Part shown: piece after piece, positions 29,141 through 57,196 of the stretch | Layout of the letters: the number at the start of each line of letters is the position of its first letter | Numbering within the stretch: the stretch's first letter is position 1 | NCBI GenBank assembly: GCA_032718475.1 | Contig: JAUCBJ010006632.1 | Location: forward strand, 12,596 to 76,595 | Source: Nemertoderma westbladi | Lineage: Eukaryota; Animalia; Xenacoelomorpha | DNA length: 64,000 bases | Direction: 5' to 3' | The notes under the pieces: model-generated | Told to the model about the DNA's origin: nothing | Database searches by the model: none | What the model saw: only the letters and a program-made list of their open reading frames with translations | Position numbers and translations under genes: made by a program

Positions 29141-29150
29141 GTAATACGCG
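29141..29150 (+). promoter_or_regulatory. Non-tRNA primer-binding site of C (GTAATACGCG), complementary to LTR 28093-28102
   Basis: Abuts the LTR end, no TGG; exact 10-nt reverse complement CGCGTATTAC in both LTRs. Confidence 0.75.
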
Positions 29151-30469: not shown

Positions 30470-33400
30470 ATGAGTGTCTCAGACAAAGAGGCACTAGAGG
30501 ACAGCTATGAGACGGCGGCTGGACCGCCGACTGACGATAGCGTAAATATTACTGTTGATGACAATGCCGACTATGACGACGCAGCGAGCGACGCTGACGT
30601 AAGTGAACAGGAGGACGAGACAGTGACTAGTGAGGAAGAACAGCAGCCTCAGGTAATAGTATTAGGATCCCCTACCGCTACTGATAGGAAGGACTGTATG
30701 GCAGCCCGGACAGAGGTGAGTGATAGGGAGGGTAGTGTAGTAGAAGCGAGAGCCCGGAGCCCGGTTTCCAGACCTGTGGGTATGGTAAGTGCCGTGGTCC
30801 CGACGGCTGTTAGGAGTACCTGTAGTTCCCGAAATAATCCTTCAAGTCCACCAAGTGTGAGTCAGGTAAGCGAGAGAGAACTTGATATCGCGATAAAGAA
30901 GAAACTTCGCGCGCATGCCGGACATATAACTCGGACGGCGGACAAGGTAAGGAAGATGTTAGCTGACCCAGCGAACATCGGGAGGGTAGAGTTAGTAGAG
31001 ATTAGAAGAGGATATAACTCAGCGTTATTCAAGCAGACGGAGGAGCTTGCAGTCCTAGCGAAGAAGGCAGTAGAGTCTCAGTCGAGCGACGTAGCAACGA
31101 GGATTTACGACAGGGTTTTAGCAGCCTTGTTAGAGCACCGCGAGTTATCGGAGCGATTCCGACGAGTTAGGACGGAGAACTGGCTGCTATGGGCATCACA
31201 AACGCAGGCGACTCAGGTGAGTGACGCAGAGTTAAGAGACTTAGTGGAGCGGGAAGAGATCCAAGATAAGGAAGAGCGCCGTTATCAGAGGGAAGTTACT
31301 AGCTGGCTGATGCAGAATGGAGTGGTGGTACCAGGCCAGGTGCTACCGACGACGGAGAACATTCAACAGAGGACGTTGACTCCACCCGACGACGCATCTA
31401 GAGACAGCGGCGATTCCCAGGTTAGTCACGCGCGAGGTAAGGTAATATGTGCTAGATCCCTTGTTTCTCACAACTCGGCGGAGGAGAGAAGACGCCGACT
31501 AGACGAACAGCAGGCGGAAGTTTTGCGTGCACAGGAAGCACGGAAGGAAGCCGAGCGGGAACGGGAGCGCACACGTAAGTTGGACGCAGAGTTACGAGAG
31601 TTGGAAGAGATAAGTAAGCGCGAGCGAGCGGAACGCGAGCAAAGGGAATGTGAACTCCAAGCCGAGCGCGAGCGCGAGGAACTCGAATGCGAACAGAGAG
31701 AACGCGAACTCCAACTCGAATGCGAACGGGAAGCGAAGAAACGCGAACTCCAACTTGAATGCGAACGGGAAGCGAAGAAACGCGAACTCCAACTCGAACG
31801 CGAACAGGAAGCGAAGAAACGCGAACTCCAAGCCGAACGCGAGCGCAAGAAACTCGATCGTGAACAGAAGGAGCGCGAGCTTCAACTCGAACGCGGACGC
31901 AAGGAACGCGAACTCGAGATCGAGAAAAGAAGACGCGCATTGTATGAAGAAAAGGCGCGAGTGGAAGAAGAGAGCGCAGCGAGACGAGCGAGGGAAGAAG
32001 AAGAGCGTAAACTGGCGCAGTTGGAAAGTGCGAGATTAAGTTTAGAGAGCGAAGAACGGACTAGGAAGGCGAACGAAATCGCCGAGAAGGGGATGCGAAT
32101 GCTCGAAGAATGTGGGGCGAGTGTGGGGACAGAGTTGCGAGAACTGTTCGCACTGCAGAAGGCCGAACAGGAAGCGAGAACTCCGACTATACGCGAGTCA
32201 ACGACGACCAGAATTCCTATACCCGGTCCAGCTATTACGAGTACACGGATCGTTAAACCGTTCTCTACATATCGCACGCCAGTTGGTATTAGTGCTTCAC
32301 CTATCGCCCAGGATCTACGTCATCGGAACGCCGCACCACTGTATACCGAACGTGACAACGGAGAATTTAGAGAAGAAACTCCAACGGGACGAGTATTTGG
32401 CGAACCGAACCCGCGGGTTTGGAATACGCGGACGGAGCGCCGACCCAGTTCGACGGAGAACTTCCGGGTTAAACCGGAAGAGGGATCATATGAGAGACAG
32501 CGGATTACTCAGATAGAGCCGACTATACAACAGAACCCTAGCCAGGAATTTATTACGAGGGATGAGTTAAGTGCTAGTTTAGCGCAAGCTATATCGCCGC
32601 ACATCCAACCTATAACGGACATGCTTAGCAACCTACGGTTAAAGGAAGCAGCCCAGGTAAGAAGTAATTCTAATCCTAGCAGGCCTGAGTTAGATAAAGT
32701 CCAGCCTAGTCAACGAGTACGCATATCGGAGGAGACTATACCACATAGACCTCAGGTAAGGACGCCTGTCCCGAATATCCATAATCCCAATTTCGAAAAT
32801 TCGGCAGAAAGATTTATTGAGGAAGCTTGGGTCAGGGCCTCGGCGCGCAAACCATCGCGAGCGCTAAGGACTGACACTGAGTCAAGCGATGAAGAGGAAG
32901 AAATGAGATGTCAGAAGTCCCGAAACTATAAGGAAAGAAGGACGGACGCGGAGCAGGTAAGTTGGAACCACCGGGAAAGGACCAGACTTAACAACACTGC
33001 GGAACTAAACCATTTGTTAACCCGGAACGACGCAACCCTTAGGGACATAGGTAAGTTTGCTGCTAGGCAAGGACTGCCGACGCAGCAACCCCAGAAGTTT
33101 ATGGGTAACCATAAACATTGGAGGACCTTCAAAACCTATGTCGACGAGCAGCTAACCAACAGCACCTTTACTCCCAACGAAAAGTTCAACTATTTGCTTC
33201 AGATGCTCCATCGAGAACCTAGAGCCATTGCTGATAATTTCGTCGGCAATGAAAGAGCATTTGAGTTAGCGATGAAGATGCTTAGTGACATTTACGGGAA
33301 TAAAACCAAGATGGCGCAGTCGATAGTAGAAGACTTGGGTAAGGGCGGAAGGATTACAACTCCGTTAGAGCTGTTGAACTTAGCAAACGCTATTTCGAAC

Positions 33401-35530
33401 GCATTGGACATCTTGAGGACGGTGAATCTACCTCATCATGGTGATCACGCCGAAGTTTTGAAAAGCGTAATAAGACGTTTAAACATGCGTTACAGACAGA
33501 AATGGCGCAAATTAGAGAATAAGTTGGAGGGCCAAGGTAAGGTGTTGACACTTCAGCATATTCATGACATGATAGCCACAGACGCAGTAGCAGAGATGAA
33601 ATCAAACTTCTCAGAAGAGAATATGAGGGAGTCTAAACCTGTTACCGGTAAGTCTATGGTAAGTTTTGACGATGACAGGACCACTGTGACATTTAACTCA
33701 GTAGACAGATATAATTCGAATACCCCAGCCTTTAGATCAGACTCGCGAGTATGGTCAGGTGAGCGGTTAGATAGACCTAGGTTAAAGCAACAGGAGTTGC
33801 CGGATGGATTTGTAGGTTGCCAATACTGTTTACTAAAGGAGGTAAGATCTGACGACCATAAGTTAGATAGTTGCAGACGGTTCAAAGAATTAAATTCGGA
33901 ACAGAGAAGAGTTCAAGTGCGGACGTTGGACACCTGTTGGGCATGTCTTGCGCCAGGTCATGTACGGCGGCAGTGCCCGAACAGCAAGGACGGATGCATG
34001 GAATGCGGCAGACTACATCACAAGTTGCTACATGCGGATTTCCACACCCCAACGGACCGTTACTTACAGCGAAATCCTCAAAGGAAGGGGAGCAAAGAAC
34101 CCGTATCGATAAGGAGGAATACGTACACTGGCATCCAGGACGATGGTTACCAACCAGGTTCGTCGGACGAGGATGGCGAGTCGAGCGCGAGAGAAGTGAC
34201 CTGCCAAGGTTTCACCGCGGATAGTTCATCGACCAGCGCGCGGACGTATTTATCATCGGCCACGTCGGAAATATTTAGCGTGATTCCGGTGAAACTCACT
34301 GGCGATAAGGGATCGAAACGAATATATGTGATGCTGGACACTGCGTCCACATTATCGTATATCGACGAGGAAGTGGCGAGAGCCGTTTCTAGCTTCCAGG
34401 ACGCCGAGGAGATCCAAATAGAGTTGAAGTCTATGCATGGGGTAGGAGACCTCAAGGTACACAGAATTTCGGTGGAACTAGATTCCCTACTTCCGAGAGA
34501 CCAACACACTCGACAAGAACGGAAAGCTTTGCCATTGGACGGATTTAAGTGTCTAGCTATGAAGGGATTCGGCAGGCAGTTAGGTAAGGTGCCGCCGATG
34601 AGTCCCATAGCACAGGAGTATTTTGACAAGCTCAGGATACCCAGACACCAGGTAGGTTATAGGAATGTTTCTATGTTGATTGGTGCAGAACAGCTGATCG
34701 CACACCAGATATGGGAAACGAGACCAGCTGAGCCGCATGTCAATGGACCACATGCCCATAGGACCATACTAGGTTGGTATACACGAGTACCCATGTCTTA
34801 TGAGTTTACAGGTGGCGACAAGCCAATGGACAGATACGATGAATTACAGCCTATAATTCAACCACCGTTAGTAGAACCACCAGACATAGACGAGTTTAGG
34901 AGAACCTGTATTGACCACTATAGTGACTTTAGCGAGTCGGACGAGGAGTTGATTCCCGATAATGTTAGGTTGTCGGAACCACTTCACAATGACCGGACAG
35001 ATAGTGAACCCGAGGACTACTGTTATCAGACCCGTGGGTCTGGTTCAGCGGCCCACGCTACCTATTTGACTAACGTTTTGACTTATACAGACATAGTGGA
35101 GGGTCAAGTGGCTAAATATCGAGACCTAGACATTTTCCAATACAGTGAGGAGGAATTACAGAAGGAATTGATACGCCAGGACCTCGAGACAGGAGCCAGA
35201 ACCGTCGAATGGCTGGACAGGGACGCAATGGAACCCGGTGGATATGACCTAGCCATGTCTACTGATGAGAAGCGGTCGCTGGAGATGATGGAAGATACCA
35301 TACGTCTACTACCGACTGGACATTTTGAAGTTGGAATGTTGTGGCGTCGACAACCACCTAAGTTGGAGAACAACTACAGCTTAGCCTTGAAAAGATTAAA
35401 CGGAGTAAGGGCTCGGTTGTTGAGGAATCCAGGCATTAGGGAGAAGTATTGCGCCCAGATCAACAACTATTTCGCCAAGGGATTTGCTGGGAAGGTAGAG
35501 GACCCTGACTTAGTGACAGACCAGACTTAG
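30470..35530 (+). CDS. gag-pol: C gag-protease (long coiled-coil gag, BEL CCHC knuckles, protease)
   Basis: 1686-aa ORF; KFMGNHKHWRTF, CWACLAPGHVRRQC..CMECGRLHHKLLH, MLDTASTLSYI; ends in an in-frame TAG at the start of RT. Confidence 0.93.
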   Translation: MSVSDKEALEDSYETAAGPPTDDSVNITVDDNADYDDAASDADVSEQEDETVTSEEEQQPQVIVLGSPTATDRKDCMAARTEVSDREGSVVEARARSPVSRPVGMVSAVVPTAVRSTCSSRNNPSSPPSVSQVSERELDIAIKKKLRAHAGHITRTADKVRKMLADPANIGRVELVEIRRGYNSALFKQTEELAVLAKKAVESQSSDVATRIYDRVLAALLEHRELSERFRRVRTENWLLWASQTQATQVSDAELRDLVEREEIQDKEERRYQREVTSWLMQNGVVVPGQVLPTTENIQQRTLTPPDDASRDSGDSQVSHARGKVICARSLVSHNSAEERRRRLDEQQAEVLRAQEARKEAERERERTRKLDAELRELEEISKRERAEREQRECELQAEREREELECEQRERELQLECEREAKKRELQLECEREAKKRELQLEREQEAKKRELQAERERKKLDREQKERELQLERGRKERELEIEKRRRALYEEKARVEEESAARRAREEEERKLAQLESARLSLESEERTRKANEIAEKGMRMLEECGASVGTELRELFALQKAEQEARTPTIRESTTTRIPIPGPAITSTRIVKPFSTYRTPVGISASPIAQDLRHRNAAPLYTERDNGEFREETPTGRVFGEPNPRVWNTRTERRPSSTENFRVKPEEGSYERQRITQIEPTIQQNPSQEFITRDELSASLAQAISPHIQPITDMLSNLRLKEAAQVRSNSNPSRPELDKVQPSQRVRISEETIPHRPQVRTPVPNIHNPNFENSAERFIEEAWVRASARKPSRALRTDTESSDEEEEMRCQKSRNYKERRTDAEQVSWNHRERTRLNNTAELNHLLTRNDATLRDIGKFAARQGLPTQQPQKFMGNHKHWRTFKTYVDEQLTNSTFTPNEKFNYLLQMLHREPRAIADNFVGNERAFELAMKMLSDIYGNKTKMAQSIVEDLGKGGRITTPLELLNLANAISNALDILRTVNLPHHGDHAEVLKSVIRRLNMRYRQKWRKLENKLEGQGKVLTLQHIHDMIATDAVAEMKSNFSEENMRESKPVTGKSMVSFDDDRTTVTFNSVDRYNSNTPAFRSDSRVWSGERLDRPRLKQQELPDGFVGCQYCLLKEVRSDDHKLDSCRRFKELNSEQRRVQVRTLDTCWACLAPGHVRRQCPNSKDGCMECGRLHHKLLHADFHTPTDRYLQRNPQRKGSKEPVSIRRNTYTGIQDDGYQPGSSDEDGESSAREVTCQGFTADSSSTSARTYLSSATSEIFSVIPVKLTGDKGSKRIYVMLDTASTLSYIDEEVARAVSSFQDAEEIQIELKSMHGVGDLKVHRISVELDSLLPRDQHTRQERKALPLDGFKCLAMKGFGRQLGKVPPMSPIAQEYFDKLRIPRHQVGYRNVSMLIGAEQLIAHQIWETRPAEPHVNGPHAHRTILGWYTRVPMSYEFTGGDKPMDRYDELQPIIQPPLVEPPDIDEFRRTCIDHYSDFSESDEELIPDNVRLSEPLHNDRTDSEPEDYCYQTRGSGSAAHATYLTNVLTYTDIVEGQVAKYRDLDIFQYSEEELQKELIRQDLETGARTVEWLDRDAMEPGGYDLAMSTDEKRSLEMMEDTIRLLPTGHFEVGMLWRRQPPKLENNYSLALKRLNGVRARLLRNPGIREKYCAQINNYFAKGFAGKVEDPDLVTDQT
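31610..31920 (+). repeat. Coding tandem repeat (39-nt core, CEREAKKRELQLE) in C gag
   Basis: gaacgggaagcgaagaaacgcgaactccaact repeated. Confidence 0.85.
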
Positions 35531-35545
35531 CTTCCACACCACTAT

Positions 35546-38500
35546 GTGACTCACCCTGACAAGCCAGACAAAGTCCGAGTAGTCAACGACTGCGCAGCAG
35601 TCTATAGAGGTATGTCCCTGAATTCAGAGTTGATGGATGGTCCCAACCTGAATAACTATTTGATTGGAATACTGTTGCGTTTTAGACAGCGGCGATTCGC
35701 ATTTACTTGTGACATCGAGGCGATGTTCCACCAGGTAAGAGCCTGTAAGGCAGACCAGGATAGCCTTCGATTTCTCTGGTTTGAGAATGAAGACTTATCC
35801 GGCCCAGTGGTTACATACCAAATGTACGTTAGGATATTTGGCGCCCGCGATAGTCCGAATGGCACGCTGTTCGTTCTAAAGAAAACGGCAACAGCCCAGA
35901 TTGGTAAGTACCCAGTAGAAGTAATCGAGTCCATCTTGAGAAACTTCTATATGGACGACGGATTGGTGTCCAAGGACACAGCGGAACAAGCCATAGAAGT
36001 GGCTCACGGCCTGCAAGAGTGCTTGGCTACAGGGGGTTTTCCTCTAACCAAGTTCACTACTAACTCGGAGGCCCTATTAGAATCGTTCCCGGTAAAAGAT
36101 CGCGGGAGCGGAGACATTGAATTGGGGGTAGAACCAATCCCCATGGCGCGAGTACTGGGACTCGCTTGGAATCCGAACTCGGATAAGTTCCAGGTAAGAG
36201 TTAGATTTGAGCCCAGTAGCCCAGACAAAGTTTTGACAAAGAGAATTTGCTTATCGACATTAAGTAGACTATTTGACCCGATGAACTTTATCAGTCCGGT
36301 TATATTACAGGCACGAGCGTGCATGAGGAAAATTTGGTTGTCCGACTTAGAGTGGGACGAACCAATATCTCCTATACATGCAAAGCAGTGGAGGGAGTGG
36401 GAAGCCGAGTTGCATCTATTGAAAAATATAGATGTACCCCGTTCCTACTTTCCGAATCAGCTGGTATTTCCAGCTGATTTAGAACTGCATTTATTTAGTG
36501 ACCGGCTTTGGTATGGTAGCCTACCTTCGCCGAGAGGTAAGTCAGGACAAATTTGAGACGGCCTTTGTGACTTCTAGATCAAAGACAATGCCGGTCAAAT
36601 ATATGACTGTCCCTCGTGCAGAGTTACAGGCGGCTGTAGTTTCGGTCGAGGTAAGTAAGCAAATAACTGAGGAGTTAGACACGACATTGACCTTATTCTA
36701 TTGGACGGACGCATCCTTGGTGTTAGTATACATTGCGGCCGACAATATTGCACTAAAGACATTTGTGGCCAATAGACGCGCTCAGATCGTTGATTTTTCG
36801 ACGAAGGAACAATGGAGACATTGTCCGGGAGTGTTGAACCCGGCCGACATAACTTCGAGAGGTGCAATGCCGGCGGAATTCTGTCGGGAAGAGTCGCAGG
36901 AGTTTTGGTTGCATGGACCTGATTTTCTAACGAGGACACAGGAACATTGGCCAGAGCGACTAAAGATAGTGACCAATCCGATGCCTGAAGATGCAGAAGT
37001 CAAGGTGGAGAAAGTCTCTAAGTCGAAGTCTAAAGCCAAACTTAAGTCATTGGAGCGGCCTGAAGAGTCATTGGAGCGGCCTGAAGAATCATTGGAGCGG
37101 CCCGGAGACCTGTCAGACCAACAGACTTACGTGACTACTAGGTCCGGAAGGGTAAGTTATGACGTAAAACCACCCTTACAGACTAAACCAGAGTCACAGT
37201 TGGTAAGTGACGGACAGAAAATGACCGACACAATGGAGTCTTTGGTTTCCAAACCTGCGGGTTTGGATTCGAAACTTCCATTAGTTAGCGGACAACCGTC
37301 GCTGGCATTAGAGTCATGCAGTATTTATGACAAATTACTAAATTCGTCTGCCTCTTGGCTGACAATTTGTAAAAGAACTGCGTGGTTAAGCCGATACGTT
37401 TCGTACCTTTGTTTAAAACATTCGAAACATTTGAGAGAACCATTGAGCACCAATAGTGAGCGAATTCAGAAATTGAAACAACCTCTGACAGAGGATGAGA
37501 TTGATCAAGCGGAATTAAAGCATTTGAAGCATTATCAAATGTGTGCCTTCCCGAAAGAATTCCATCTATTATCGGCTCATCGACCAGTTCTCTATAAACC
37601 CCTTAGAAAATGGAGTCCATTAATCCATAAGGGTTTAATTTGTCATAGATCGAGAATCCAGACTGTCGACATAAACTCACAGTTTAGGTTCCCAGTGATA
37701 ATCCCTAGTCACCCAATAGAATTGCAAAGAGCGATTCTATGGGATATACACAAGAGGTTGCATCACGCGGGAAAGTTACACTGTCTGTCGGCAGCGAGAC
37801 AGCGATTCATTCTATTGCAGCCAAGCAGGGCAGTAGGCACTATGTACGACGCCTGTCTGGTTTGCAAGAGAGTGAACGCCAGAGTATTGGAACAGGAGAT
37901 GGCTGAACTCCCGGAAGCGAGAGTGCAGGCATATGACCCACCCTTTACGAATACAGGGGTGGACTGTTTTGGTCCGATTGAAGCAAAGAGTGGACGGCTG
38001 ACCCACAAGCGATGGGGTCTGCTACTGACATGTATGGCCAGTAGAGCCATACACATCGAGCGTGTGGCAGACATGTCGACCAAATCTCTGCTCCTGGCCT
38101 TAAAGAGATTTATGGCCAGGAGAGGACTAGTAAAGGCGTTCTACTCTGACAAGGGTACAAACTTTGTCGGAGGGAATAGCGAGTTGAACGCGGCTCATAA
38201 AGCAGCACAGAATAAGGAAATTTCTGCAGCACTTTTGCCGCAACGAGTAGAATGGAGATTCAATACTCCAGAAAGTCCTTGGAGAGGAGGAAGTTGGGAG
38301 CGTTTGGTTCGCTCTGTGAAGCAGGCCATTGCCAAAACATTGCCTGTGAACAAACAACTTACCGACGACGAACTGGTCACAGCTTTTATTGAAATCGAGC
38401 ATACCCTAAACTCGAGGCCGATAGCTATGTTGCCAGACGGTGTTGCATTAACGCCGAATCATTTGCTAATGCAGAGTCCAGCATTTCTTGTGCCGGCATC

Positions 38501-38912
38501 AGAACCCATTAGTGCCGACCTATATAGTCGTAAGAGCTGGAAAGTAACACAGTTTGTGGCGTACACATTCTGGGAATATTGGCGGGAATACTATCTTCCC
38601 ACCATATCCACCAGAACAAAGTGGTACAAAACGGTTCGGAGTCTCCAAAGGGGAGATTACGTGTTGATAACCGAACCCATTGTCAAGAGAAAGTATTGGG
38701 AGACGGGAGTGATCTTGCACACACACCCAGACGTGCAAAACATAGTGCGCACAGTCACTGTGAAAATTAGGTGCAAGTGTCCGCACCCAAAAAAGTGTAA
38801 AACTAATGGTTTACACACCTTGGACCGACCGGTCCAAGATATTGTGTTATTAGAGGAGACACGTATCGAGACGGGAGATTATAATTTGTCTCCTGCCTCA
38901 AAACTGAATTAG
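35546..38912 (+). pseudogene. pol: C pol (RT, RNase H, integrase); frameshifting deletion in the RNase H FSDAS motif near 36500
   Basis: GPNLNN, DIEAMFHQV, FYMDD, LHLFSD|GFGMVAYLR, NPADITSRG, TGVDCFGP, SDKGTNF, WRGGSWERL. Confidence 0.92.
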
Positions 38913-39676
38913 TGTTGGACGCAACTCACTTCGTATGCATTCCTCGTATGCAAATACAAGGAAATGCATAGGAGCGGGGTTGTGGTGATTTGCGTTGAGT
39001 TTTGTCTGGTGGGTATCAAAACAAAATTTTATTTCAAAAATTTTGGAAAAAATTAGAAAATTTTAAAAATTAGAAGTGAACCCAAGACAATTCCAGACGC
39101 TGTGTATAGACGCGTTTTAGAATTCGTCTATAGATAAACAGTAATTTGAAAAGTCGTGAAGCCTGGAAAATAGCATTTAGAAACCATGGTGACGGCTATA
39201 TTACGTAGGAGTGTAAATTGAGTTTAGCAACTTCCACAGATTGGTGCCAACAGTGCAACTAAGGTGCTAAAGGTTAGTAGCACCAGAGGGGTGCACGGAC
39301 CCCACTCAGTAGTTTGCAGGATGTGTGATGTTCGATTATCAAACCTGTGGGTTTGGTATAGTCGAGTATTGTGGCTATAGTCCTTTCTAACTACTGTAGT
39401 TTAGTACGAGTAATGGGAGTAGTTTGGGCATCAAAAAGTGAGTTGGTCACGGCCAGTTTATCTCCAAAGTTTTTGCGCTATGCATGGGAATAGGTTAGAG
39501 GATAGTTAGTTAGGAAGAGACGGGATCTAGAGAGTCGAACCTGAACTGCTGGAAGGCGGGGGGGGGGGGTTCGGGAGGTCTGTCCTTCGGCGACATCTAA
39601 CTGATTTACCCACAGTGTAGTTGGTTACGTAACGGCACTTATTGGGATATATATATATGTATATACGCGTAACATA

Positions 39677-42600
39677 ATGGAGAGGGATATTAGAGCGCAA
39701 CCGCGCAGAGGATTTACTGCCAGAGAGGAGGCGGAGCTACCATTCGCGCGACCAGGATGTAAAGACTCTAACGTTTACTACCATGGGCGGTCCGTGATGG
39801 AGCTGAACGGGAAGTATAAACCAAGTTATGATAAAGAATTACGGAGAGAAAGAATGAGAGCGTTGGGGGACCGGATGGAAGTCTTGCGGAGAGAGTATCG
39901 CACGCGGTATCCCTACGACTTTGCTTTGGACGTGTGCGACATTAGCGCAGATCCGGACGAGGAAATCGCACGACTATACCATATGAATATGTATTTACGA
40001 CATGAGGAGCCTCTACCTGCAGTCCGAGACCAGTTCGACGGAATGCACCTGTATCGGAGGACTCGAGGCGAGGATCAGGAGACGCCGAAAGTCTTCAGCG
40101 TATACAAGCTCTTCTACAAGTGTGGTGAATGCATGAATAAACAGGACGTGGCGATTCCCGACCGATTAGACGAGCAACATCCGGAACCGATATTAACGCG
40201 ATGTCCAGCTCACCAATTCCTTAGATACAACGAGGGAGGTTACCTGATGAGCAACCCGATGATCAGTATCGACTTCAGTGGAAAGCGACCTCCGAGACCC
40301 ATTACGCCGACCGTTACGACATTAGATCCGTATACGGAGATTAAACCCTGTTCGACACCCAGTTTGATAGAGACGGCAGCGGCCATTTTGCTGTACCGAT
40401 CCTACAAGGATCTAGAGGCGCGGCGCGAAGCGGCGCGGGACTCGGGTACCAAACCCGTGGGTTTGGAGCTCTCGAGTCCCTGGACTGCGTTTACTTCACC
40501 TCACCGAGTGAGAAGCCTCACACCTGAGCATCAGGACGACATAGACGCGTTGCGGCAGGAGGAGCGAGTGGCGAAGGCGAAAGAGTTATCAGGATAGCTA
40601 CTTATTAACAGGATAGCGGAGTATAATAAGACCGCGGATAGACATCAAGAGGAGACGAGGAGAGTGACCGGATTTGTTCCACAGGTCGTATCTCAACCCG
40701 GACCGGTGTATTATTCCGACGGCACCGAACCTGCGATATTAGTAGATCATCCGGAGTCGCGAGAAGCGATACGATGAAGATGGTAAGAATGGCGGACCAT
40801 TGGAACGTTGACTGTCTACGGGAAGTTTTATGCGCGAAGTTCTTGCGTGATGTCCCAATGCAGATCACAGATTACGACACTTTGGACAAGATTGGAGCTC
40901 CGGGGAAGGAGAGTAAGTTATTCGGATGGTTGGATAAGTACATCAAGGTATGGGTCGCGGTGGCTACATTCCCAGATGACGAGGAAGTAGACCAGACGTG
41001 GCTGAGGAGGAAGGGTTCTTATACCCGATATGATGACCACAAGGCGATCGAGCGCATGTGGACCCCATCAGATGAGATTCAGCGTCAGTGGAGGAAAACG
41101 GAGGAATCACTGCAGGATTGGAGAGTGATGTTCTACGACAATGAAGGAGGGTCCCATCAGGAATGCTTGACTAGCAAGTGTATTCAAATTCGTGCGGCCG
41201 ATGGTGTGACTCATGTGTTTATGCGTGTGAGGGCGGATCGAGAGAGACCGGAGCCCATCATAACGACACAATATCGGAAAGGGAAGGATCCTAGGGAACA
41301 GATTTTGGAGGTATGCAGGCGAGGAGGTATGCACGGAGCGGAGCGTATCGACGCCAGGATGTTACCAAAGAAGGTTAGAGAGGCTATTCTCAACCAAGAT
41401 TACGTCAAGGTGGGATCGGGAGTCCAGAGCGATTTGGAGAGCGACTTCAACGCCATGACTGATCTGGAAGATAGATTGCCGAGACCGTTTGTCGACACCA
41501 AGCTATTGTTGCTATGGGCACAGGATATTGGAATTTATAGGGAGTATCCCAACTCTGCCAAGACTGGTATGGGCTTTATAGCACACTTGTTGTATAATTG
41601 GGACTTTAAGTTGAAGACGCAAAAGAAGTACGAGGAGGCGTATGGCGAATACAACACGCCACCGGGAGCGGAGTTCAAATCCCACTTCAAGCGGCAAGCG
41701 TTAGTGTATTGGAACATTTGCGCGCCACCCCGTGCGTCGCTACAATATTATTTGGTGCTTGAGTCGAACACGGTGACTTGTTTATTAGCGGATATCGTTG
41801 CGCGAGTTTTGAAGCGTCATCCATTGGTATTCGGAGGAGATCAATACGTTCGCTCGAAAGGGGGAATCCAATCCGACGTGATGAAGCGTTTCTTAACCCC
41901 GTTCTTCAACCAATCGTTAGAGAATACGTCGATGGTGAGGAGAGGATTAGCGATATTCGAAGGAGTATATCGACAGAACATCGGAGATTTGGGAGACCGA
42001 CCGTCGATGGAATATCCGACGCCAGAAGCTTTGGAGAAGTGGTTCGGGAATCAAACCCGCGGGTTTGGTACTCCCTTCCACTCGGAGGCTGATAGACCTG
42101 TTAAGGAGGGCTGGCCGGAAACGTTAGTAGAGGTGTTCGGAGTAGATCTTCCGGTGGAGAAGACATATCCGAAACGAACGCGGGAGGAAATATTGGAGAT
42201 AGAGGACAAGGGCGAGGATGTTTACTTTGTTCCGGATCGACAACCGTTGACCGGAGAGGACGACATCGTATTAGACATTGGGAAGGAAGGAAGTGCGAAA
42301 CCGATTGGAGACCTCATATACGAGAGGGCCTGGTTTCCACAAGCGCGTAGGTGCAAATTGTGCGGCAGCACAAGGCACAATCTAAAGTCGTGCGACGCGG
42401 TAATAGAGGCGGCGCATAAGGTCTGTCGTTGGTGCAATGAGACCGACCATTCGTTTCACACGTGCACCGTCTTCATTTCTCAATGTGGATATTGTGGAGT
42501 AAAAGGACACCGTAGCGCGAGATGTCAGCTGCGAGATGATTCCTTTCAAAACCATAGCGCTAACCTACTTCGGGTGATGTTAGATAAGTGGGAGAGTGTG

Positions 42601-43392
42601 GCGGATTACCATATTCAAGCGCAGATGCGTTGGTTACCATTTAAAGCGGGATATGGGTTTTGGGCGGTAGACCCATCGCATGTTGCGTACGAGCCATATC
42701 TACAATCGCTACCACAATATCAGGAGCTCATCCTAACTGCTCAAGACCTTCCACAGAACACTGGAGTTATCGTAGTCCGAGAATACTTCAGACAATTGAA
42801 CATGGACAATAAGTACACATGGAACTTCGTTGCTATTTGCGATCGCATCACGAAGGGTGTATTTACGGAGACTAGAAAAGTGGTACGCGCGCGAGGTGAT
42901 TGGAGGATGGCGGCTATACAATACCGCAACGAATTCTTGTTGACTCATGTGCCAGTGGGTTCATTGACCGCCGAGAGGATACAGGAACAAAGGATCGCAG
43001 CGACCACAGCGACGACCGCTGGAGCTCAAGGCTCGCGGAAAGAACCAGGAGGAGGGGTCCAAGACAAGCGTCAAGTCAAGGACGACCACTACCACTCCAT
43101 TATAGAAGCTCAACGGTTGCAGCGCAAGGCGCAGGGGGCGTCTGAGAAAGCGCGTGTGCAACTGCAGAAGGAAGAGTTGGCGGAAGCGACCACGGGAGCG
43201 CGACAATTGGGACGAGGCCGAGGGAGAAGTTCAAGCCGAGAATCTGTCGGGGCTCAGGGAACGTCGTCGCCGGTTCCGGGGAGTGACGCCTCACGGACGC
43301 CGTCAACGGAGTCGACTAGAGGTAGATTAGTGTATCTGGGAAGGGGACGAAAGAGAGGAGCGAGCCCAAAGAACCCAGGAGCGGGTCGATAA
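39677..43392 (+). CDS. C accessory ORF3 (~1240 aa if repaired): novel N-domain, DEDDy-type exonuclease, 3 CCHC knuckles, basic tail; one stop (40595) and one frameshift (~40770)
   Basis: FYDNEG, CIQIR, LP..VREAILNQDYVKVGSGVQSDL, FVDTK, GMGFIAHLLYNWDFK, YYLVLE; CKLCGSTRHNLKSC, CRWCNETDHSFHTC, CGYCGVKGHRSARC; the inter-ORF segment ILVDHPESRE matches A ILVEPPDNRA. Confidence 0.85.
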
Positions 43393-45005
43393 TACATTAT
43401 GGCACAGGGCGACAGACTCTAGATATATACATCATCGTCGCTCTGATGTATATTGTAGCATTTGAAAATTTTCGACTAGACTCGTACCTAAAGAGGTGAG
43501 GTCTCTATAGGGGTGCGAGTAACAGGCGGCGGCGGACTCGTGAGGGTCTGGGGGCACGTTAAACACTAGTCTAAGTGCAAGGGAGATACTGATGGCCCTC
43601 GTGTCTAGCGAACCATGAATTGCCATGGTGCCGTGGTTCCGTCTAGTCGGCATGTTGCCGTACTGCCAGTCCTGTACACAGTAGGGGTGGTGGCATGGCG
43701 TGATTTGTGGTGTCATGTGGTGTGAACTGTGGTTTGTATGTGGGCGATCAGTGGCAGTTGCTTGGGGCTCGGATGGGTTCCTTTGGCCATCAGCTGTTCC
43801 GTTTTTTTGATACTATATGTTATTGTCTCCATGTTCAGCTGATTGGTTTTTGGGATTTGTTTGGGCCTTTGAGTTTTCTGTTGCTGTGGGTACGTGAGTA
43901 CACGTGATTGTGTGTATGGCCACTGCGAGTGAGTGTGGGAAACCTTGCCGGTTGGACAAGACGCCGCTGGTATTAGTAGGACCATACTTTACTGCGCCCC
44001 AGCATACTTTGTGCACACAAGTTATTTTACCTTGTCGGTAAAATAAAGTACTCTCGACTTTCTCATTCTCTCTCAAGTCGATACAACTAGTCCCTCCCGA
44101 TTTTGACACCGATTTTGTCTTTCACGATTATGTCCTCTGTGTGTGCATGGTATGTGTCCGATTTTGTGTTTACCGTAGTGTACTTGATATTGTGAACATC
44201 TGTTGAGTACACGTGTATAGGACTGGTAAGTGGTTACTTGTTCCTAGCTTTCGAGCTAGTCAGTATTGTTTGTGGAACTTACTTCCCCTCAATACTGCCG
44301 GCGAGGCGGGTGAAAACGTGTCAATATTCCATGTTGGGTAGCACAAGCCCACTTGGGACAAGACCGTCGGTTAGGCCCAAGGGCGACCTTGGTGCTTGAT
44401 CGCTATCGACTGGTCCACCCGCCGGTTGACTCTCTGAGTTGGCTCAATGTACAGTCAGGCCACAGTAAGTTGACAGTAGCCGCCCATCTGGCTACACGTT
44501 CGACGAGCTGTGCCGGTGTGATCGGGGAATTGAAAATTGAACCCGGGAAGCATCGGGCCATCCCCCGGCCCGGTCTGATAATAACATCAGTCAGACTGGC
44601 CCCAGGGGTGGTGGAAACACGTCCGCCTCGTGGGTGCGCCTCGGGGAGGAGCCCAGAAGGACGTAAGCGATACACTAGTTGAGTTATTTGAATTTATATT
44701 ATGAAAGAGGCGAAGGAAGTGATTGGGGAGACAAACCTGCAGGTTTGGCTTACTCCTTTCACTTGCCCTAGCAAAATTTTTATATTTGATTTTGTATGTA
44801 GTAATCATTATGTAGTAAGAATGAACGAGAAACAATATTTTGTAAATTTAATTTGTATGTAATTCATTATGCAATATCTATGGCAATATTTGTAAATAGT
44901 AGAATTATTATGTTATTTAGATTGGTTGGAAGAAATTTATTTTGTTTTGTATACATCACCTTATACTCTTCTACAATTGGAGGGAAACATTATATGATTT
45001 CCCTT

Positions 45006-45012
45006 GGAGCGG
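45006..45012 (+). promoter_or_regulatory. Short PPT of C (GGAGCGG)
   Basis: Abuts the 3' LTR; same ending as B. Confidence 0.65.
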
Positions 45013-47193
45013 TGTTACGGTATATGGCGCTGTATCCACAGTATTAGTCCATTATGCAGTATGCAGTATTAGTCCATTATGCAGTATGCAGTATTAGTCC
45101 GTTATACTGTACGTAATATTAGTCCGTTGTGCAGTATAATTATTTAGATAAGGCGCAGTGTGGTGACATTTAGGTAAGGAAGTTAAAACGCCCATATATT
45201 TTGCATCCATTCATTTTGTATAGTATGTAGCCCTACCTACGTAATTTTGTATTAGGATATATGTAGATAGTTCCAGGGTTGCGAGTTTACTCGGACCCTG
45301 GATTTTGTGCTTGCTGATATTAGTTTGATAGGGCTAGCATATAGGGACGCTGTCCTGGCCATTCAGCAGCCAGAGACGTGATCCATTACCATATATGGTA
45401 ATAATTTGAGGGCATAGGGCTACAATCCGGTCTCCTTATTGGATTAACTGCTTCCAGGTTGGTTTAATGCTAGCATGGACTGGAGAGCCAATGGGAGAGC
45501 GATTGAGTCACCTTATTGCATCACCCCATCGGGATCACCTATAAATTGGCGGTGTGCCGGTAGGGCCTTTTGTTGTTCATATGTTCATGCCTTATCACAT
45601 GACACACCCCTGTTACAATTTACTTGCTGAGCTGTCTCTAATTTTGTATTAGGATATCGTATTTTCTGCAATTTGCTAATTTTGATTAATTTCTTGGAAT
45701 GATTTGCTAGTACGATTACTTTGCTTGTGTTTCTCAATAATTCCTTCGATTACTGCAAATTACAATCGAACTATGATTTCTACCTTTGATTGATGGTTCT
45801 ATGTGATTCTTTTCTGCGCAATAATCCCAAGGGATTCCTGAGACTGTCAGACTTTGTGATTTGCATGCGCCGCTACGGTAGCTATTAGCATCATGGAGGG
45901 CTAAGGTGCCAGTGGGCGGTGGGCGCATCGGGGGGTTGAGCGACTAGGAGAGAGCGGAGGATTCAAAGCGGGCAACGCTGGCCAGGGTCACCGTTGCGGG
46001 CGGGTATCTTGCACTGCGGCACGCAGACCGATCGCCGGTACAGTATCTAGGGGGCTGATGATCCAGGTTTTGTCTCTATTTAGTATTAGGGGGGCAGGAA
46101 TTGGGTTAGTTAGGAATCCTAGATGTACCCGGGAGAGGCCTGCGCGTATTACAACGTTGAGTGTGGAGTACGAGTAGTGAATTGCACAATTGTAAACTGT
46201 GATTTCTAACGCTGATTGGTGTGTTATTGAAGTGTGCCTAAGATTACGAATGCTTAGATAGGCGCTCTTTTCCTTTGATTGATTTCTATTTCTTAGTTAC
46301 AATAATTAGTTATTGTTTAGGTCAAAGTAATACGGCAATTTAGGCTATTACTAGCGAAACCTGTTGCGTGATAAATTAGAATTACGTATTCTGGAACTCT
46401 TAGTAATTAGTACGCTGTTAAATATTTGTGACTGTAATTAATTAGTAAAAAATTAAGAATTAGTACGCAGCATAGCGGAGAGTAGCTAAGGTAATAATTA
46501 GTGTACTGTAAACTATTCACGCTGAGCGGTTATTTGCATTAGCGGGCAATCAGCTAGAACGCACTATTCGGTACGCACGATACGCTAGTAATTTTGCTGG
46601 CCTAAAGCCAGTCGCGGGCAGTTTTAGACTCGGAGTGGTATTATCCACGTAGAAACAGATACTGTACCATTTTGATATTTTAAATATTCTCGCATTCACA
46701 CATTACGTTAGGGAACCTCCAGTATTCGCGATTAGAAAGACGTAGGTAATAGCGTGCTTTAATAGTGATAGAATTAGGCGTAAGAATACTCTGAGTGCAA
46801 GGCCTCTCGCACTCGTCTTAAGTAAGCTTAGGGAGCCGACTCGGGTTTATTGTTTTGGTTATTCATGCGTGGCTCATAGATTCGAACAGTTAGCTCTCTA
46901 TCGAGCAATCGGTAGAGAAAGGAACAAGCGATTTTGCAGGAGTTGTGTAAATTTAGTAAAATATATTAGCGGACGGCAGATTAGCGCCATCTAACGGTAA
47001 GTAGCGGTTTGTATTTAGCAACCCTTACAATTTAGTAATATCACGCTCCTGAGCCCCTTTACTTAACAGTAGAGCAGTCTTTGTGTCTGACGAGTGGTTA
47101 GACGAGAACTTATTAGGTTGGCAGAAGGATATTAACGGGTATTGGTCTGTTCAACAGTTCTGCTGTTAGTATAGAGGTCGCGGTTGTTTATCA
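45013..47193 (+). repeat. 3' LTR of C (2181 bp)
   Basis: Direct repeat of 26957-29140. Confidence 0.96.
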
Positions 47194-48128: not shown

Positions 48129-48671
48129 TGTTAGCTTAACCAATTCCGCTAACACAAACCCATAGAGTGAACCGTTAAGCAATATTGGGAGCACGAGGTT
48201 GATTACCAATATCAACCTCCACCAAGGTGGGAAGGAGAGACACACACACAATAGGGGTCAGGGGTTACTCCCCTGAAAGGAGAGAGAACAACAGGGGCAA
48301 GGGGAAACACACCAGGGAAGGTGAAAGGGCGACAAGTAGGATATTAGCCAATCAGGGGGGGAGCATCGGCTGAGTAGCGTAACTTGGCCAACTGTGCAAT
48401 ATATTATCATTTACTCAGTGTATCATCCAGTCAGTGTATCATTTGGTGTTAGTTAGGTTAGTTTAGCTAGGGAAGTACCGGGACTTTAATCACCATTTCC
48501 CGCCTTCCGTTTACTATATTACCAATTCTATATTATAATCATTTATCTATACTATTATACCCAAAGATTATATACGACGAACAACACAAACTCTTTTCAC
48601 CTTTCACACACGGCGGGGACGCGTAGATTAACAAACCGGATAAACCGGGATCCTTCGTGGATCCTGTCACA
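48129..48671 (+). repeat. 5' LTR of D (543 bp)
   Basis: TG..CA; repeat of 60514-61067. Confidence 0.95.
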
Positions 48672-48680
48672 GTGATTAAA
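48672..48680 (+). promoter_or_regulatory. Non-tRNA primer-binding site of D (GTGATTAAA), complementary to LTR 48485-48493
   Basis: Abuts the LTR end, no TGG; exact 9-nt reverse complement TTTAATCAC in both LTRs. Confidence 0.72.
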
Positions 48681-48807
48681 TCGGAGCTGCTACCCTAGTT
48701 AACTAAACTCGAGCAGCTACTACAGTGATTAAAACCCAAGCAGCCGCCCCTAGTTGAACAGTGACTACCAGCCACCAATCTAAAGTACACAGAAGAGCCA
48801 AAGAAAG

Positions 48808-51800
48808 ATGAGCAACGTAACGCCAACGCGGACCCCGGACGAAGAGCTAACGATCCGCGAGGCCGCGACCAGGCGGTATAGGCCCACGACGCTGGACCCA
48901 TCCATAATGGGTCATCCGGCAGTTCAGGATGAGGGGAACCACCTGGAGCCAGAGAGCGAGATGGAAGGAGAAAGAGACGAGTCGACACATGTCGGTCGAC
49001 GTACCGATGTTGCCGGCCAGCCACAGGCCGAGGGCGACGGACGGCCCACCGGAACGGCGACGGTAGGGCCGCCGGTACGACGTCGGACCCGGAGAGATGG
49101 AGGAGAGGTCGGCGACGAAGACTTCGGGGTTTCTGATCGACTTTGACGGGCCTACAACGTGACCCGGAAACTACTAAAGGAGGCCAAAGAGAGGGCGAGG
49201 ATAGACGAGGTAAAGTTGACAAAAGGACTAGGTGAGTCGGATAGACATTTTAATTATCTAATGCGCTTTGGGCAGGGAGAACTGGCCAAGGAGAGAGCGA
49301 GAGGGGTTGCCAAAGAACTGTGTGATTTATGGCGGTGTAGGGGTATGCAACCTAGTGTAGTGTACATAGGGACATACTTAGTCGATGCCCAGGGTATAAA
49401 ATTAGTGGGTTGGAGGAGACCTGAGAGAGGCCGAATCCGAGGTTAACCCCGAGGATTCGGTCTCGTCGGTCGGAGGGAATTCCAGTTCCGGGAGGCGGGG
49501 GGAGTTAGTAGGACAGGAAGGCGGAGGGAATCCGTCACAACCGATAAGTCTGCTACATCCTCCGTAAAAGGAAGACGGGGGATGGAAATTAACGCGGAGT
49601 ACCATCTCGATTTGATAGCGCAAGGCCAAAGAGAGGTAGAGAGACAGTTAGAGGAGGGGAAAGCGCTATTAGAGAAAGAGATGGGACTGGTTAGAGAGAC
49701 CGGAGAGAGGGCCGAGAGAACTGCGAAAAGCTTTAGGGAGTGTGAGGAAATGGGATGGAAGGAACAAGAAGAGCATGAGGCGAGAGAGGAGAATGAGCGT
49801 AGGGAGCATGAGGCGAGAGAGGAGAGTGAGCGTAGGAAGCGTGAGGCGAGAGAGGAGAGTGAGCGCAAAGATCGCAAGGCGGAATGTAAAGAGCGCGAGG
49901 CGAGACGAACGGAGAGAGTTGAGAGAGAGAGAAGGAACAGGCCGAACAGAGCGCGCGGGAGAGTCAGGAAATGATAGCAGAGGGGAGGCGTATGCGGGAT
50001 GGTTTACATGCCCGCCTAGGGGGGTTAATTCAGTACCAAACCAGACAGAAGCGCATACTGGAATTGGCGCGATTGGGGTTGTCAGAGAGTGAGGCTGAGT
50101 CGAGTGCTTTCGAGGAGCCAAGGGCCGAGGAAACATTTATTAATACTCCACTTACAGGGACCGCACGACAAACCCGAGACTGGTGTAACTGTACGGGCGG
50201 GGGGGGGGGGGGGGGGGGGGGGGTAATAATAATACTACAGTAGATGACGTTAATATTAATAGTACCGTATTGGATAACTCTAACCAAACTTTTATTGCAG
50301 GAAATATTTTACCTAGTAGTAGTAATTTAAATTTAAATCCGAATAATTCTAATATTAATGTAGTTACGCAAAATAATCTAAATAATAATCTGAATTCGAA
50401 TTTACAAAATAAACCAAGTAACGCAATTGCGCAAAATAATCCGAATAACTTTATTTTGAACGAACAAAATAATTCCGTTTCTAATTTGGGTGCACAAAAT
50501 AATTTAACTGGGGTGGAAGACTTAATTGATTTAACCAATAACGGTTCCTGTGGTTCCTCAGGAAGCCAGTCTGATGGACCGCGTGATTAGTGAGCCAGAG
50601 GTGGCGGGGTTGAGCCAACCCAGGGTAGGCCTGGTAGGCCACGTAGTTAGTAGGCAGGAGGTGGCAAGGTTAAGCCAACCCGGGGTAGGCCTGGTGGGCC
50701 ACGTAGTTAGTAGGCAGGAGGTGACAGGGTTGAGTCAACCCGAGGTGGGCCTGGTAGGCCACGTAATTAGTAGGCAGGAGGTGGCGGGGTTGAGCCAACC
50801 CGGAGTAGGCCCGGTAGGCCAGGTAGTAGTAGAGAGAGAAGCTGGGGTGAATAGACCTAGCCGCAGTAGAAAGATTGTGTCGACTGGAGAGGGGTGTAGA
50901 AGTGAAGTAACAGGTAGCGGCGTGATATGTGGCGAGCGGGGGGGGGGGGGGGGCTACAGGAGCCCCACAACGAGAAGTTAGTGATGAGAGGGGGGGCAGA
51001 GAGTGTCCCACAGGCGTCGGCGGATAATGCGCGGGCCGAATCAGGTAAACCACAACACCCGGCGACGGAGAGTAATAGGGGGATTGCGAGTATCCCCAGC
51101 GGCGTGCGATCGAGCAGAGAGAGGCAGGATGACGTCGCGAGAAGGCGGACGGAGCGTCGAGCCCGATCAGAAGAGGGAAGAAGAACAGTGGAGTTTAACC
51201 GGGAGGTCGACGAGAGATCTCACGAGCGGGAATACTGCACTGTAAAGAGAAGAAGAGAAGACAGTAGGAGAATTATCGCCGCGAACGATAGGAGAGCGAG
51301 GACGGATAGCGAGCCGTCGGTAGTCAAGATGGAAAGAGAGTGTAGGTGGGGTCGAACTTCGGGAGATTGCCGTTGCCTCGGAGAAACGCGACCCGACGAG
51401 GCGCACTACGCGTCGAGAGAGGGGTACACAATGTACCGGTACGAAGACGAGAGCAGTAGAGGGGGTCGAAGAGAAACTTTCCGACGGGAAATACCTACCG
51501 ACCGAGAATACGGTAGCCGCGGGGAGGATTATTTGAGAAGAATAAACTTCGATCCCGAGAGACACACACAGACTGTAGGACATACTGTAGGCCTTACTGC
51601 ACATACTATAGGCCATGCTGACAGAGGCAATGTAAGCGATAGGATAGCGCGAACCGCGGGATTAAACCCGGAAGTCGCGGAGTACATACCGGCAGGTAGG
51701 CCAGAAGCTGATAGGCCTATACCGGTACCAGTGCAGCAGTATGACTACAGCACGAAAGGATATAACATATACCCAGTGGAGGGGGGAATCGTGCTAAAGA

Positions 51801-53062
51801 CGCTAGACGCGCCATACGAGCTCAACACGTCTAACAAGTGGAGGAAAATCGCTTTCTCCACTCGAGATAGGAAGGGTGCGGAACTGGGTTTAGAGGAAAT
51901 GTCAAGCTTCTTAATCTACGAAGCTGAACTAATAACCGATCCAGTCTATAGCGAAGATAGCCTGGGAAAGGGACCAAAGACGGATTACCACAGACCGAAA
52001 CCAGAGCACAACACGTCAAACGCATTACCAAAGCTCAGGCAATCACTGCCGTATGCAGCGACGCAGGGGACTGCAAGTCCACAGGTAGCCGAGGGTAAGA
52101 CCACACCATGGAACGGACAAGGGAAAAATAACAACACAAATAAATATAACCCTAGTACATCCAGTAGGCCGAACCCAAACAATAAGAACAGTAGGGATTT
52201 TGGTACAAAAGCAGCTGCGATACACAATGCACTGTATAAGGACGGCTACAACCCAAAGAGCAAATGCCAGCTACATACAAATGCGCTTCATCAAACCATG
52301 AACTGCAGGTACTGCAGAACGAGGCCAAGTAGAATGGCGGTAACAACCATTTCCAGCAAAGATGAGGTCCTGGATATGAGGACCGGACAGTGCGCGATTG
52401 CAGCAATAGCACCGGGATGCGACTATGGGGCGAGCATCGACCCCATCCAAGTGATAGAGTCAATAAATATCAATGCCAGGCGGCCAACCAACATCGAGGT
52501 CGAACAATACAAATTTCTGGATGATATCGACTTCACAATCCCAGAGGTGGACATTAGGAAGGTATCCATCATAGTAGGAATGGACTGCCCGACGGCCCAC
52601 GAAAGAATGCAAACGGTCTTCGGCGAAGACAGGGAGTGTGACCCAGTGGCGATACTGACACCATTCGGGTGGACACTGAGTGGCCCAATCAAGAGCAAGA
52701 TACCATTTAGGATGTCGGAGACATCAGGATGCATGCTCGCGGGAACTATGCAGGAAATGGGTGATGAGAGAGCAGAGGAGCAGCTTAAAAGACTGCTCAA
52801 ACAAGATTTTGAAGGATTAAAGGAGACCAGGGTCGGGACCTTGGTGGAAGACAAACAGGCTCAACAAAGCATAGAGGAGTCTATGAAATGCGACGAAGGG
52901 CGGTATACCATAGGAATGGTATGGAAGCTACCGAAGCTACCAATGCCCGATAATAGAGGGATGGTACTCACGACGCTCCACAAGCTGAAGCAGACACTAA
53001 AACGGAGCCCAGAGAAGAATGAGTACATCCACAGAACAATTAAGAAGTACGTCGAGAAATGA
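48808..53062 (+). pseudogene. gag: D gag/protease region, fragmented with internal deletions
   Basis: Broken coiled-coil ORFs; KWRK..SFLIYEAELITDPVYS, VSIIVGMDCP..TPFGWTLSGP; capsid core, knuckles and protease DxG motif not found. Confidence 0.75.
50590..50830 (+). repeat. 60-bp tandem repeat (4 copies) in D gag
   Basis: ggaggtggcggggttgagccaacccggggtaggcctggtaggccacgtagttagtaggca units. Confidence 0.9.
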
Positions 53063-53068
53063 TGGGCT

Positions 53069-56000: not shown

Positions 56001-56160
56001 ATACTATCATCAACAACCAGTGGCGGTTGGCGAGAGTGGTAGGCACTTACTCCGATGAGGACGGAAGAGTCCGATCGGTAGAAGTGCGGATAGATGGCAA
56101 GACAGAAAAACCTACAGGAGAGCTGTAGGGAAATGCTGTCTACTAGAAGGGGCACCTTAA
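53069..56160 (+). pseudogene. pol: D pol (RT, RNase H, integrase) with stops; second IN aspartate apparently mutated (SGSGTNF)
   Basis: YYLPLH, LNDYLLEGPN, DIEGMFNQV, FYVDD, MFSDAS, NPADLLSRG, CGVDMFGP, LTPSHFL. Confidence 0.92.
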
Positions 56161-56289
56161 CGTAGTGTAGAGTGTAGGGGGGAGAGGTGTTTAGTCGTCC
56201 AAGTTTTGGACTGAGGGGGGTGGGATTGAGGGCGAGACGCCCTTCCCACACATAAAAATAAAAATAAATAAAAATAATTAGAGTTAGTT

Positions 56290-56760: not shown

Positions 56761-57196
56761 AAGAGATAGAGGTAGAAGGGTATATAGTATAGATATCAGT
56801 CAGTAGTTAGTAGCGAGAGGGGGGCATATGAGTACAGTTGGATAGATCGTGTAGGCCACGCGACATATACTGTTGTACTGCACAAGCCCGCAGAGTAGGC
56901 CAGAATGTGGATTAGAAAATAGATTAATCCATAGGCAATAGTAAGTAGTAGGACAGTAGAGTTAAAATTAAATTAAAATAAATAAAATAGGGCTAAGAGA
57001 ACAAATTATGGTAACAGTAATAAGGAAATTCTGGAACATAATTAAAGCAACGGACAGAATTAGTGAATTTAGGAAATTTAGCACTTTAAGAAAATAAAAG
57101 TAAGAAAAACGGCAATAACCTAGCATTTCAGAGAGAGATAGGCCATTATCGAACTGTACAGACCATCCTAGCTACATCACTCACTTATATTGCGCC

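Follow-up and report, generated by a model that had tools for sequence, protein, structure and literature searches.

A third gene in three BEL/Pao retrotransposon families of Nemertoderma westbladi encodes a predicted DEDD exonuclease-fold protein with CCHC knuckles

The DNA analyzed here, 64,000 nucleotides of Nemertoderma westbladi (contig JAUCBJ010006632.1 of assembly GCA_032718475.1, positions 12,596 to 76,595 of the forward strand; this whole stretch is the window, and all positions are counted from its first letter), consists of nested long terminal repeat (LTR) retrotransposons. The third gene of an LTR element is usually assumed to be env. An original prediction, made from the letters of the window, had placed behind the integrase of three BEL/Pao-type elements, A, C and D, an accessory gene encoding a DEDDy 3'-5' exonuclease with three CCHC zinc knuckles. 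We located a post-integrase gene in all three elements, and reading frames, motifs, tblastn and a profile of homologues from elsewhere agree on it. The elements, together with B, a fourth one, were placed in BEL/Pao on domain content, LTR structure and, for A, whose own LTRs lie outside the window, identity to B. Pfam recognized Pao-type gag-pol domains (DUF1759 in B and C; Peptidase_A17, Integrase_H2C2 and DUF5641 in B, C and D), in the order protease, reverse transcriptase, RNase H and integrase, and A is joined to them by 73-92% amino acid identity to B. LTRs with TG..CA ends, a target duplication and a polypurine tract were present in B, C and D, and the two LTRs of C differ by 10 mismatches and 9 gap letters. 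The pol blocks of A/B, C and D are 28-51% identical to one another, which makes these three distant families, as had been claimed. B was inserted in opposite orientation into the pol of A, a member of its own family with which it shares 83% nucleotide identity. The Belpaoviridae profile of the virus taxonomy committee ICTV gives, as descriptive traits on which the placement above does not rest, lengths of 4.2-10 kb and a primer site for tRNA-Arg or tRNA-Gly (PMC8742986); D, B and C, at 12.9-20.2 kb, exceed this range, and C, at 20.2 kb with LTRs of 2.18 kb, is about twice its upper limit.

In C an unbroken frame of 872 amino acids (40774-43392) carries YDNEG (starting at 41134), GSGVQSD (41413), VDTK (41491) and TGMG (41563), followed by three knuckles that start at 42352, 42424 and 42484. 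The putative catalytic positions are Asp 41137 and Glu 41143 in ExoI, Asp 41431 in ExoII and Tyr 41749 and Glu 41761 in ExoIII. After the knuckles comes a conserved C-terminal domain with the pattern F/W-E-x-x-A-D...G-F/W...P-x-Y, which is also found in A, D and the homologues, and then a basic, low-complexity tail up to 43392. The open reading frame (ORF) 39677-40597 matches an upstream segment of the A gene (E=4e-8) and, judged by this similarity, probably belongs to the C gene as its N-terminal part. Two breaks interrupt the gene in this copy of C, one an in-frame stop (40595-40597) and the other a change of frame close to 40774; since contigs from other C copies differ from it in length at both places, we infer that the gene of the family is one long frame and that both breaks are new in this copy. 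The idea that 40774 is a coupled stop-start by design was rejected, because the other-copy contigs differ from this copy there. Contigs of one sequencing run on 38900-44400 also showed joins across 39822-40152 and 39560-41557 without GT-AG ends, which are internally deleted copies of C. A loose contig end at 43486 resembles a cDNA template-switch adapter, which hints weakly that the run was made from cDNA.

The gene of A has ExoI at 24125, ExoII at 24412, ExoIII at 24754 and its knuckles at about 25300-25520. A stop at 25318-25320 cuts the first of these and leaves two clean knuckles downstream. In D, ExoI lies at 57587, ExoII, with Asn, at 57797 and ExoIII, with Glu, at 58107, while three knuckles and the C-terminal domain are found in 58844-59791; the gene had been put at 57197-59794 and is indeed there, in three frames, but its first ATG is at 57242. 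By tblastn, C matched A with E=9e-35 and the knuckles of D with E=2e-7. A and C share a long N-terminal extension that D and the outside homologues lack, and that of C gave no Pfam match and no match in the PDB below E=0.6. The extensions of C (40106-40230) and A (22653-22760) contain a C-x2-C...C-x2-H motif, a possible further zinc site by its residue pattern. The highest hydropathy in any 19-residue Kyte-Doolittle window across 10 accessory pieces was 1.46; therefore there is no transmembrane helix, as predicted, and the identity of the gene as env was rejected for want of any transmembrane-like stretch in these pieces. Coordinates are collected in Table 1.

Table 1. Elements, primer-site positions and accessory-gene features of the window
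Feature	Position	Strand	Remarks
BEL/Pao element C	26957..47193	+	20.2 kb; LTRs 26957-29140 and 45013-47193; 5-bp target duplication
BEL/Pao element D	48129..61067	+	12.9 kb; LTRs 48129-48671 and 60514-61067; 5-bp target duplication
BEL/Pao element B	807..17416	-	16.6 kb; family of A; sits in pol of A; 5-bp target duplication
Element A	1-806 and 17417 to ~25790		interrupted by B
N-terminal part (probable) of C accessory gene	39677..40773	+	no known domain; homology to A 22477-22943, E=4e-8
Predicted DEDD exonuclease-fold domain of C	41020..41850	+	profile and structure matches
Three C-x2-C-x4-H-x4-C zinc knuckles of C	42352..42525	+	motif and profile
Conserved unnamed C-terminal domain of C	42526..42800	+	alignment; no Pfam family
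Accessory gene of A	22019..25743	+	at least 6 pieces; long N-terminal extension
Accessory gene of D	57242..59794	+	three frames; without N-terminal extension
Primer-site position of C	29141..29150	+	10 nt, perfect complement of own LTR 28093-28102
Primer-site position of D	48672..48680	+	9 nt, perfect complement of own LTR 48485-48493
Primer-site position of B	16212..16222	-	11 nt, perfect complement of own LTR 16976-16966

Searching 1.84 billion representative sequences with phmmer gave 8 proteins at E<=0.001, to which cluster membership and a subsequent search contributed 2 further relatives. These 10 outside proteins, of 514-734 residues, are unnamed or called 'hypothetical', and scans of metagenomes and viral contigs yielded no DNA context for them; their common layout runs from an exonuclease-like domain through a variable linker to three knuckles and a conserved C-terminal domain. 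When a profile of the 8 homologues, containing no row from the window, was run against 1098 six-frame segments of the window, it found C with E=6e-42, two pieces of D (1e-23 and 3e-13) and two pieces of A (7e-9 and 6e-6), and nothing else below E=0.1 among these segments. The subsequent search was a word-based protein search with P0005, a homologue with Y-x3-D, as query, and it gave one new relative; with C or with a family alignment as query, word-based searching found no match. Pfam recognized no exonuclease in the ORFs of the window, its DNA_pol_A_exo1 model reaching E=0.2 in one of 12 family members, and a single-sequence search of the PDB returned weak knuckle matches only. It may be noted that one homologue, P0001, has a degenerate exonuclease site, in which the ExoI Glu is lost, together with a doubled module of knuckles and C-terminal domain.

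An alignment of 12 rows (A5) was used both as a profile and for the structure model. Against the PDB the A5 profile matched EXD2 (E=6.9e-9), Egalitarian (4.7e-4) and WRN (9e-4), and through its knuckles Lin28, the RNase D of Trypanosoma brucei (TbRND, E=7e-7) and retroviral nucleocapsid; ExoI, ExoII and ExoIII of EXD2 aligned with the motifs of the family, the ExoIII segment being weak on its own. Folding with A5 gave a model with pLDDT 63 and pTM 0.65, in which the core reached 70-90 and 132 of 307 residues were at or above 70, whereas folding without the alignment gave pLDDT 34. Among the matches that Foldseek listed for the model there were DEDD nucleases only (probability up to 1.00, best E=1.7e-3). 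We then re-aligned the model to 998 of these chains using VIA-align, and all 50 listed rows were DEDD nuclease domains, with Z from 11.8 to 9.2: NrnC 11.8 (root-mean-square deviation 4.0, 166 residues aligned), Nibbler 10.9, RICE1 10.5, RNase D 10.2, WRN 10.1, Egalitarian 9.9, Exd1 9.8 and TbRND 9.3, the last being matched separately by its knuckles in the profile and by its exonuclease in structure. As regards the proposed WRN/EXD2/Mut-7 subgroup, the sequence profile favours EXD2, but the structure scores are near ties, with Z differing by no more than about 2 units among NrnC, Nibbler, Pol I exonuclease, RNase D, Egalitarian and WRN. Combined together, these models and matches make a DEDD exonuclease fold almost certain.

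The catalytic residues were counted in A5. The Asp and Glu of ExoI are present in 10 of the 10 rows that span them, C, A and D included, at an overall identity of about 20%. The ExoII Asp is found in 10 of 11 rows (C, A and all 8 homologues), the exception being the Asn of D. At ExoIII, among 10 rows, Tyr is present in 9 and an acid in all (Asp in 6, Glu in 4), the 8 homologues having Asp in 6 and Glu in 2. The ExoIII sequence is Y-x3-E in C and A by alignment and in D by eye past a frame change, and in none of the three the canonical Y-x3-D. In TbRND, according to PMC7797062, the ExoIII Asp contacts metal A directly and the ExoII Asp acts via water. On their residues, then, the proteins of the window are a D-E-D-E variant of the fold and not canonical DEDDy enzymes, and the predicted DEDDy exonuclease is upheld in its fold and corrected in its ExoIII. 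Such a non-canonical tetrad makes nuclease activity plausible but not assured, and we consider it fairly probable that most members are active nucleases.

The effect of selection was assessed by aligning contigs of four sequencing runs to C in two comparisons, in which 40 of 478 and 40 of 69 differences were listed; after 5 differences outside the frames and those at both breaks were dropped, 56 distinct places remained. Within 40774-43389, 31 of 39 listed differences were synonymous as against an expected 25-30% (p about 1e-10 to 1e-12, values that are too small, since a single diverged contig supplies many of the differences and common variants are over-represented among those listed, though the direction is clear). 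For the exonuclease domain the figure was 20 of 26 against the same expectation, and for the upstream part 10 of 17. The copies of C are therefore under purifying selection, and since this selection supports function, the accessory gene is almost surely functional, as its retention across the families had been taken to imply. The original prediction had named the lack of a DEDDy fold and neutral evolution among copies as the outcomes that would speak against it; profile and structure searches instead supported a DEDD fold, and the copies showed selection.

On the other hand, the accessory gene of B is a decayed N-terminal remnant (about 3200-2233, minus strand) from which exonuclease and knuckles are gone. 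Between B and A the ratio of nonsynonymous to synonymous substitution rates (dN/dS) is 0.07-0.13 in pol, with no stop in 782 codons of B, as against 0.40 and 6 stops in 209 codons in the remnant. The LTRs of B differ at only 2 of 1194 sites, which corresponds to about 0.5 substitutions expected in the remnant since insertion, and the near-identical LTRs together with the 6 stops imply that the gene decayed while the lineage of B was still jumping. The gene is thus not needed in cis: either it can be dispensed with, or other copies provide it. B itself is not intact, as its pol shows 4 frame-changing gaps when aligned with that of A.

The primer-site region of these elements also departs from the ICTV description of their family. 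No TGG occurs within 60 nt downstream of the 5' LTR in any of C, D and B, and no tRNA or other Rfam match was obtained in the window. At the primer-site position each element carries a short perfect complement of its own LTR (Table 1), the pairing of which begins exactly at +1 and ends at the LTR edge, and the sequences concerned differ among the three families. Among controls that start internally, equally long matches were obtained at 10 of 5270 starts in C, 9 of 3931 in D and 1 of 4721 in B, and of 2000 shuffled LTRs each, 4, 4 and 3, respectively, contained the site. The absence of a tRNA site and the short perfect complement between post-LTR sequence and LTR are shared with Tf1/sushi elements, and in sequence the primer sites of C, D and B have the Tf1-type self-priming signature. 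In Tf1 the LTR match corresponds to the first nucleotides of the mRNA (PMC5445492). Neither a TATA box at -25 to -30 nor the poly(A) signals AATAAA and ATTAAA were found in the LTRs of the three elements. Priming at the poly(A) site is unsupported for want of these signals, and so is a splice-built primer, as no AG acceptor was seen by eye directly 5' of the three LTR sites. A second copy of the primer site follows LTR-end-like letters in C (29277-29286, 137 nt past the LTR) and in D (48725-48733, 54 nt past it).

We argued that the third gene may work in trans and trim single-stranded 3' ends of the element's own RNA, a reading which we prefer but hold tentatively, by analogy with TbRND; that the element's own RNA is the substrate is likewise a tentative proposal, and that the self-primer is its specific substrate we regard as doubtful. 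Both modules are likewise joined in TbRND, the knuckles of which hold RNA positions R5-R9, counted from the 3' end (PMC7797062); for the DEDDy ORF3s of rotifer elements, too, it has been proposed that they process the 3' ends of element RNA (PMC5408684). By analogy, the three knuckles would hold the RNA a few nucleotides behind its 3' end and feed it to the DEDD site, where a two-metal center with Glu in place of the fourth Asp would cut. The self-primer is a candidate because it is the sole visible place that needs a flush 3' end: RNA annealed to the primer site would have to stop exactly where the LTR does, and a 3' overhang would be removed by the nuclease as far as the duplex, whose edge would then become the primer end. 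In its most specific form, which we consider unlikely, a clade of BEL/Pao would have dropped tRNA priming and would encode its own primer-maturation D-E-D-E exonuclease with three knuckles, shared in trans. If primer maturation were true, it would be a new step of reverse transcription, and the enzyme a dedicated priming nuclease of a kind not known from any LTR element or retrovirus. The exonuclease domain of C is naturally unbroken, and the question is therefore directly testable in vitro.

Several observations weigh against this proposal. To our knowledge Tf1 self-primes without a nuclease third gene, its self-primer cut being made by RNase H. In B the loss of the gene long predates the latest jump, and yet the self-complementary site is kept, and a transcription start could not be placed at the LTR sites. 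P0001, which lies outside A5, has no ExoI Glu, D is without the ExoII Asp, and Glu stands in place of the metal-binding Asp of ExoIII in all three window proteins as well as in 2 of 8 homologues. The fold itself was modelled on an alignment of only 12 rows, and Foldseek gave no match for it at E<=0.001. Lastly, Egalitarian keeps five catalytic residues of which none is needed for RNA binding or function, as reported in bioRxiv 10.1101/2025.08.03.668247, and hence conserved acids are no proof of activity.

Two other readings are somewhat unlikely, to much the same degree. In the first, the nuclease would counter silencing by degrading or mis-trimming host PIWI-interacting RNAs (piRNAs), small interfering RNAs or their precursors, protecting all copies of the family in the cell. 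Nibbler, RICE1 and Exd1, which are among the structural neighbours listed above, act in small-RNA pathways, although a common fold reveals no substrate, and the 3' 2'-O-methyl group of mature piRNAs blocks such enzymes. A benefit shared in trans would fit B, with its conserved pol and decayed remnant, and the C family is many-copied, 6974 contigs having aligned to it in one sequencing run. Were small RNAs the target, this would be a suppressor of silencing that a transposon encodes and whose active site is known. In the second reading, the protein would be a catalysis-independent RNA-binding adaptor like Egalitarian, Exuperantia and Exd1, serving transport, packaging or granule formation of element RNA. 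The non-canonical fourth acid in all copies of the window, the Asn in ExoII of D, the degenerate ExoI and two knuckle modules of P0001 and the basic, low-complexity tail are consistent with such an adaptor, as is the match, by sequence and structure, to Egalitarian with its unneeded catalytic residues; but both acids of ExoI are invariant across 10 of 10 rows whose identity is about 20%, and ExoIII varies between Asp and Glu only, which fits metal binding.

Editing of cDNA ends, in which the enzyme would rid reverse transcripts of 3' nucleotides that are mismatched or lack a template and so aid strand transfer in elements of such unusual length, is an improbable role. The exonuclease domains of Pol I, WRN and EXD2 score equal to RNases in VIA-align, and C, B and D, at 20.2, 16.6 and 12.9 kb, respectively, are long beside the 4.2-10 kb of the ICTV profile; however, the gene is separate and not fused to the reverse transcriptase, B is long and yet lost it, and tandem CCHC knuckles usually bind single-stranded RNA. 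That the gene is a piece of host gene captured by chance and now decaying, as the broken state of all window copies and the loss of most of it in B might suggest, is very improbable and largely refuted by purifying selection among C copies, its retention in three families whose pol genes are so diverged, intact homologues elsewhere and the location of both C breaks where other copies differ.

The remainder of the window contains two gag-like ORF pieces of a different element on the minus strand, between the 3' end of A and C (25770-26878, by eye), and, at 62051-62779 on the minus strand, an ORF that has no introns and encodes a fibrinogen C-terminal domain (Pfam PF00147, E=1.9e-38); it is probably a host gene or retrocopy. 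Tandem arrays were noticed in the gag of D (50571-50870, 60 nt units) and of C (31593-31927, 39 nt coiled-coil units), and units of 42-50 nt are repeated in tandem between pol and the third gene of D (56278-56789).

The rotifer elements are among the closest known systems; of these, Juno and Vesta belong to a Ty3/gypsy-type group and are not BEL/Pao. DEDDy third genes with the motif DEED, their activity untested, are described for the LTR elements Juno and Vesta and for Athena/Terminon elements in the section of PMC5408684 (Rodriguez, Kenefick and Arkhipova 2017) that we cite, in keeping with the earlier claim of such extra ORFs in rotifers, and the report is repeated in passages of PMC6431247 and PMC6338049. 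The rotifer genes share with the present one a DEDDy-fold third gene after pol, the absence of transmembrane or env features and an altered catalytic motif; compared by description only, the motif is DEED there and D-E-D-E here, and the same section of PMC5408684 describes neither a triple CCHC array nor a C-terminal domain and shows no selection for those ORFs. TbRND (PDB 7C42-7C4C) shares a DEDD exonuclease, a linker and tandem CCHC knuckles, but, as far as the cited part of PMC7797062 goes, it has four knuckles and a short linker as against three knuckles and a variable linker of 150-300 residues here, and is a canonical DEDD enzyme of the cell, mitochondrial and acting on guide-RNA U-tails; the likeness in architecture is probably convergent. 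EXD2, WRN, Nibbler/Mut-7, Egalitarian, NrnC and RNase D share fold and motif order at 7-17% identity, but are without the triple knuckle and C-terminal domain and without the ExoIII Glu found here. The env-carrying BEL/Pao elements Roo, Tas, Cer13 and Atlas have their third gene at the same position, whereas here no transmembrane helix or similarity to a fusogen was found, and elements and LTRs are above the stated size of the family. We found no published exonuclease gene in BEL/Pao in a search that did not cover older nematode work or repeat databases, and the word 'exonuclease' is absent from the main text of the BEL/Pao-related papers PMC3118150, PMC2774666, PMC13524379, PMC6238403 and PMC9094657. 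Since DEDDy third genes were already known in rotifers, what is new is the host superfamily, BEL/Pao, the architecture and the altered catalytic tetrad. We thus describe a non-env enzyme family without a Pfam model, selected across deeply split BEL/Pao families and present in 10 unnamed proteins elsewhere, by which the capture of nucleases extends beyond rotifers, the role of whose ORF3 had stayed open in 2017.

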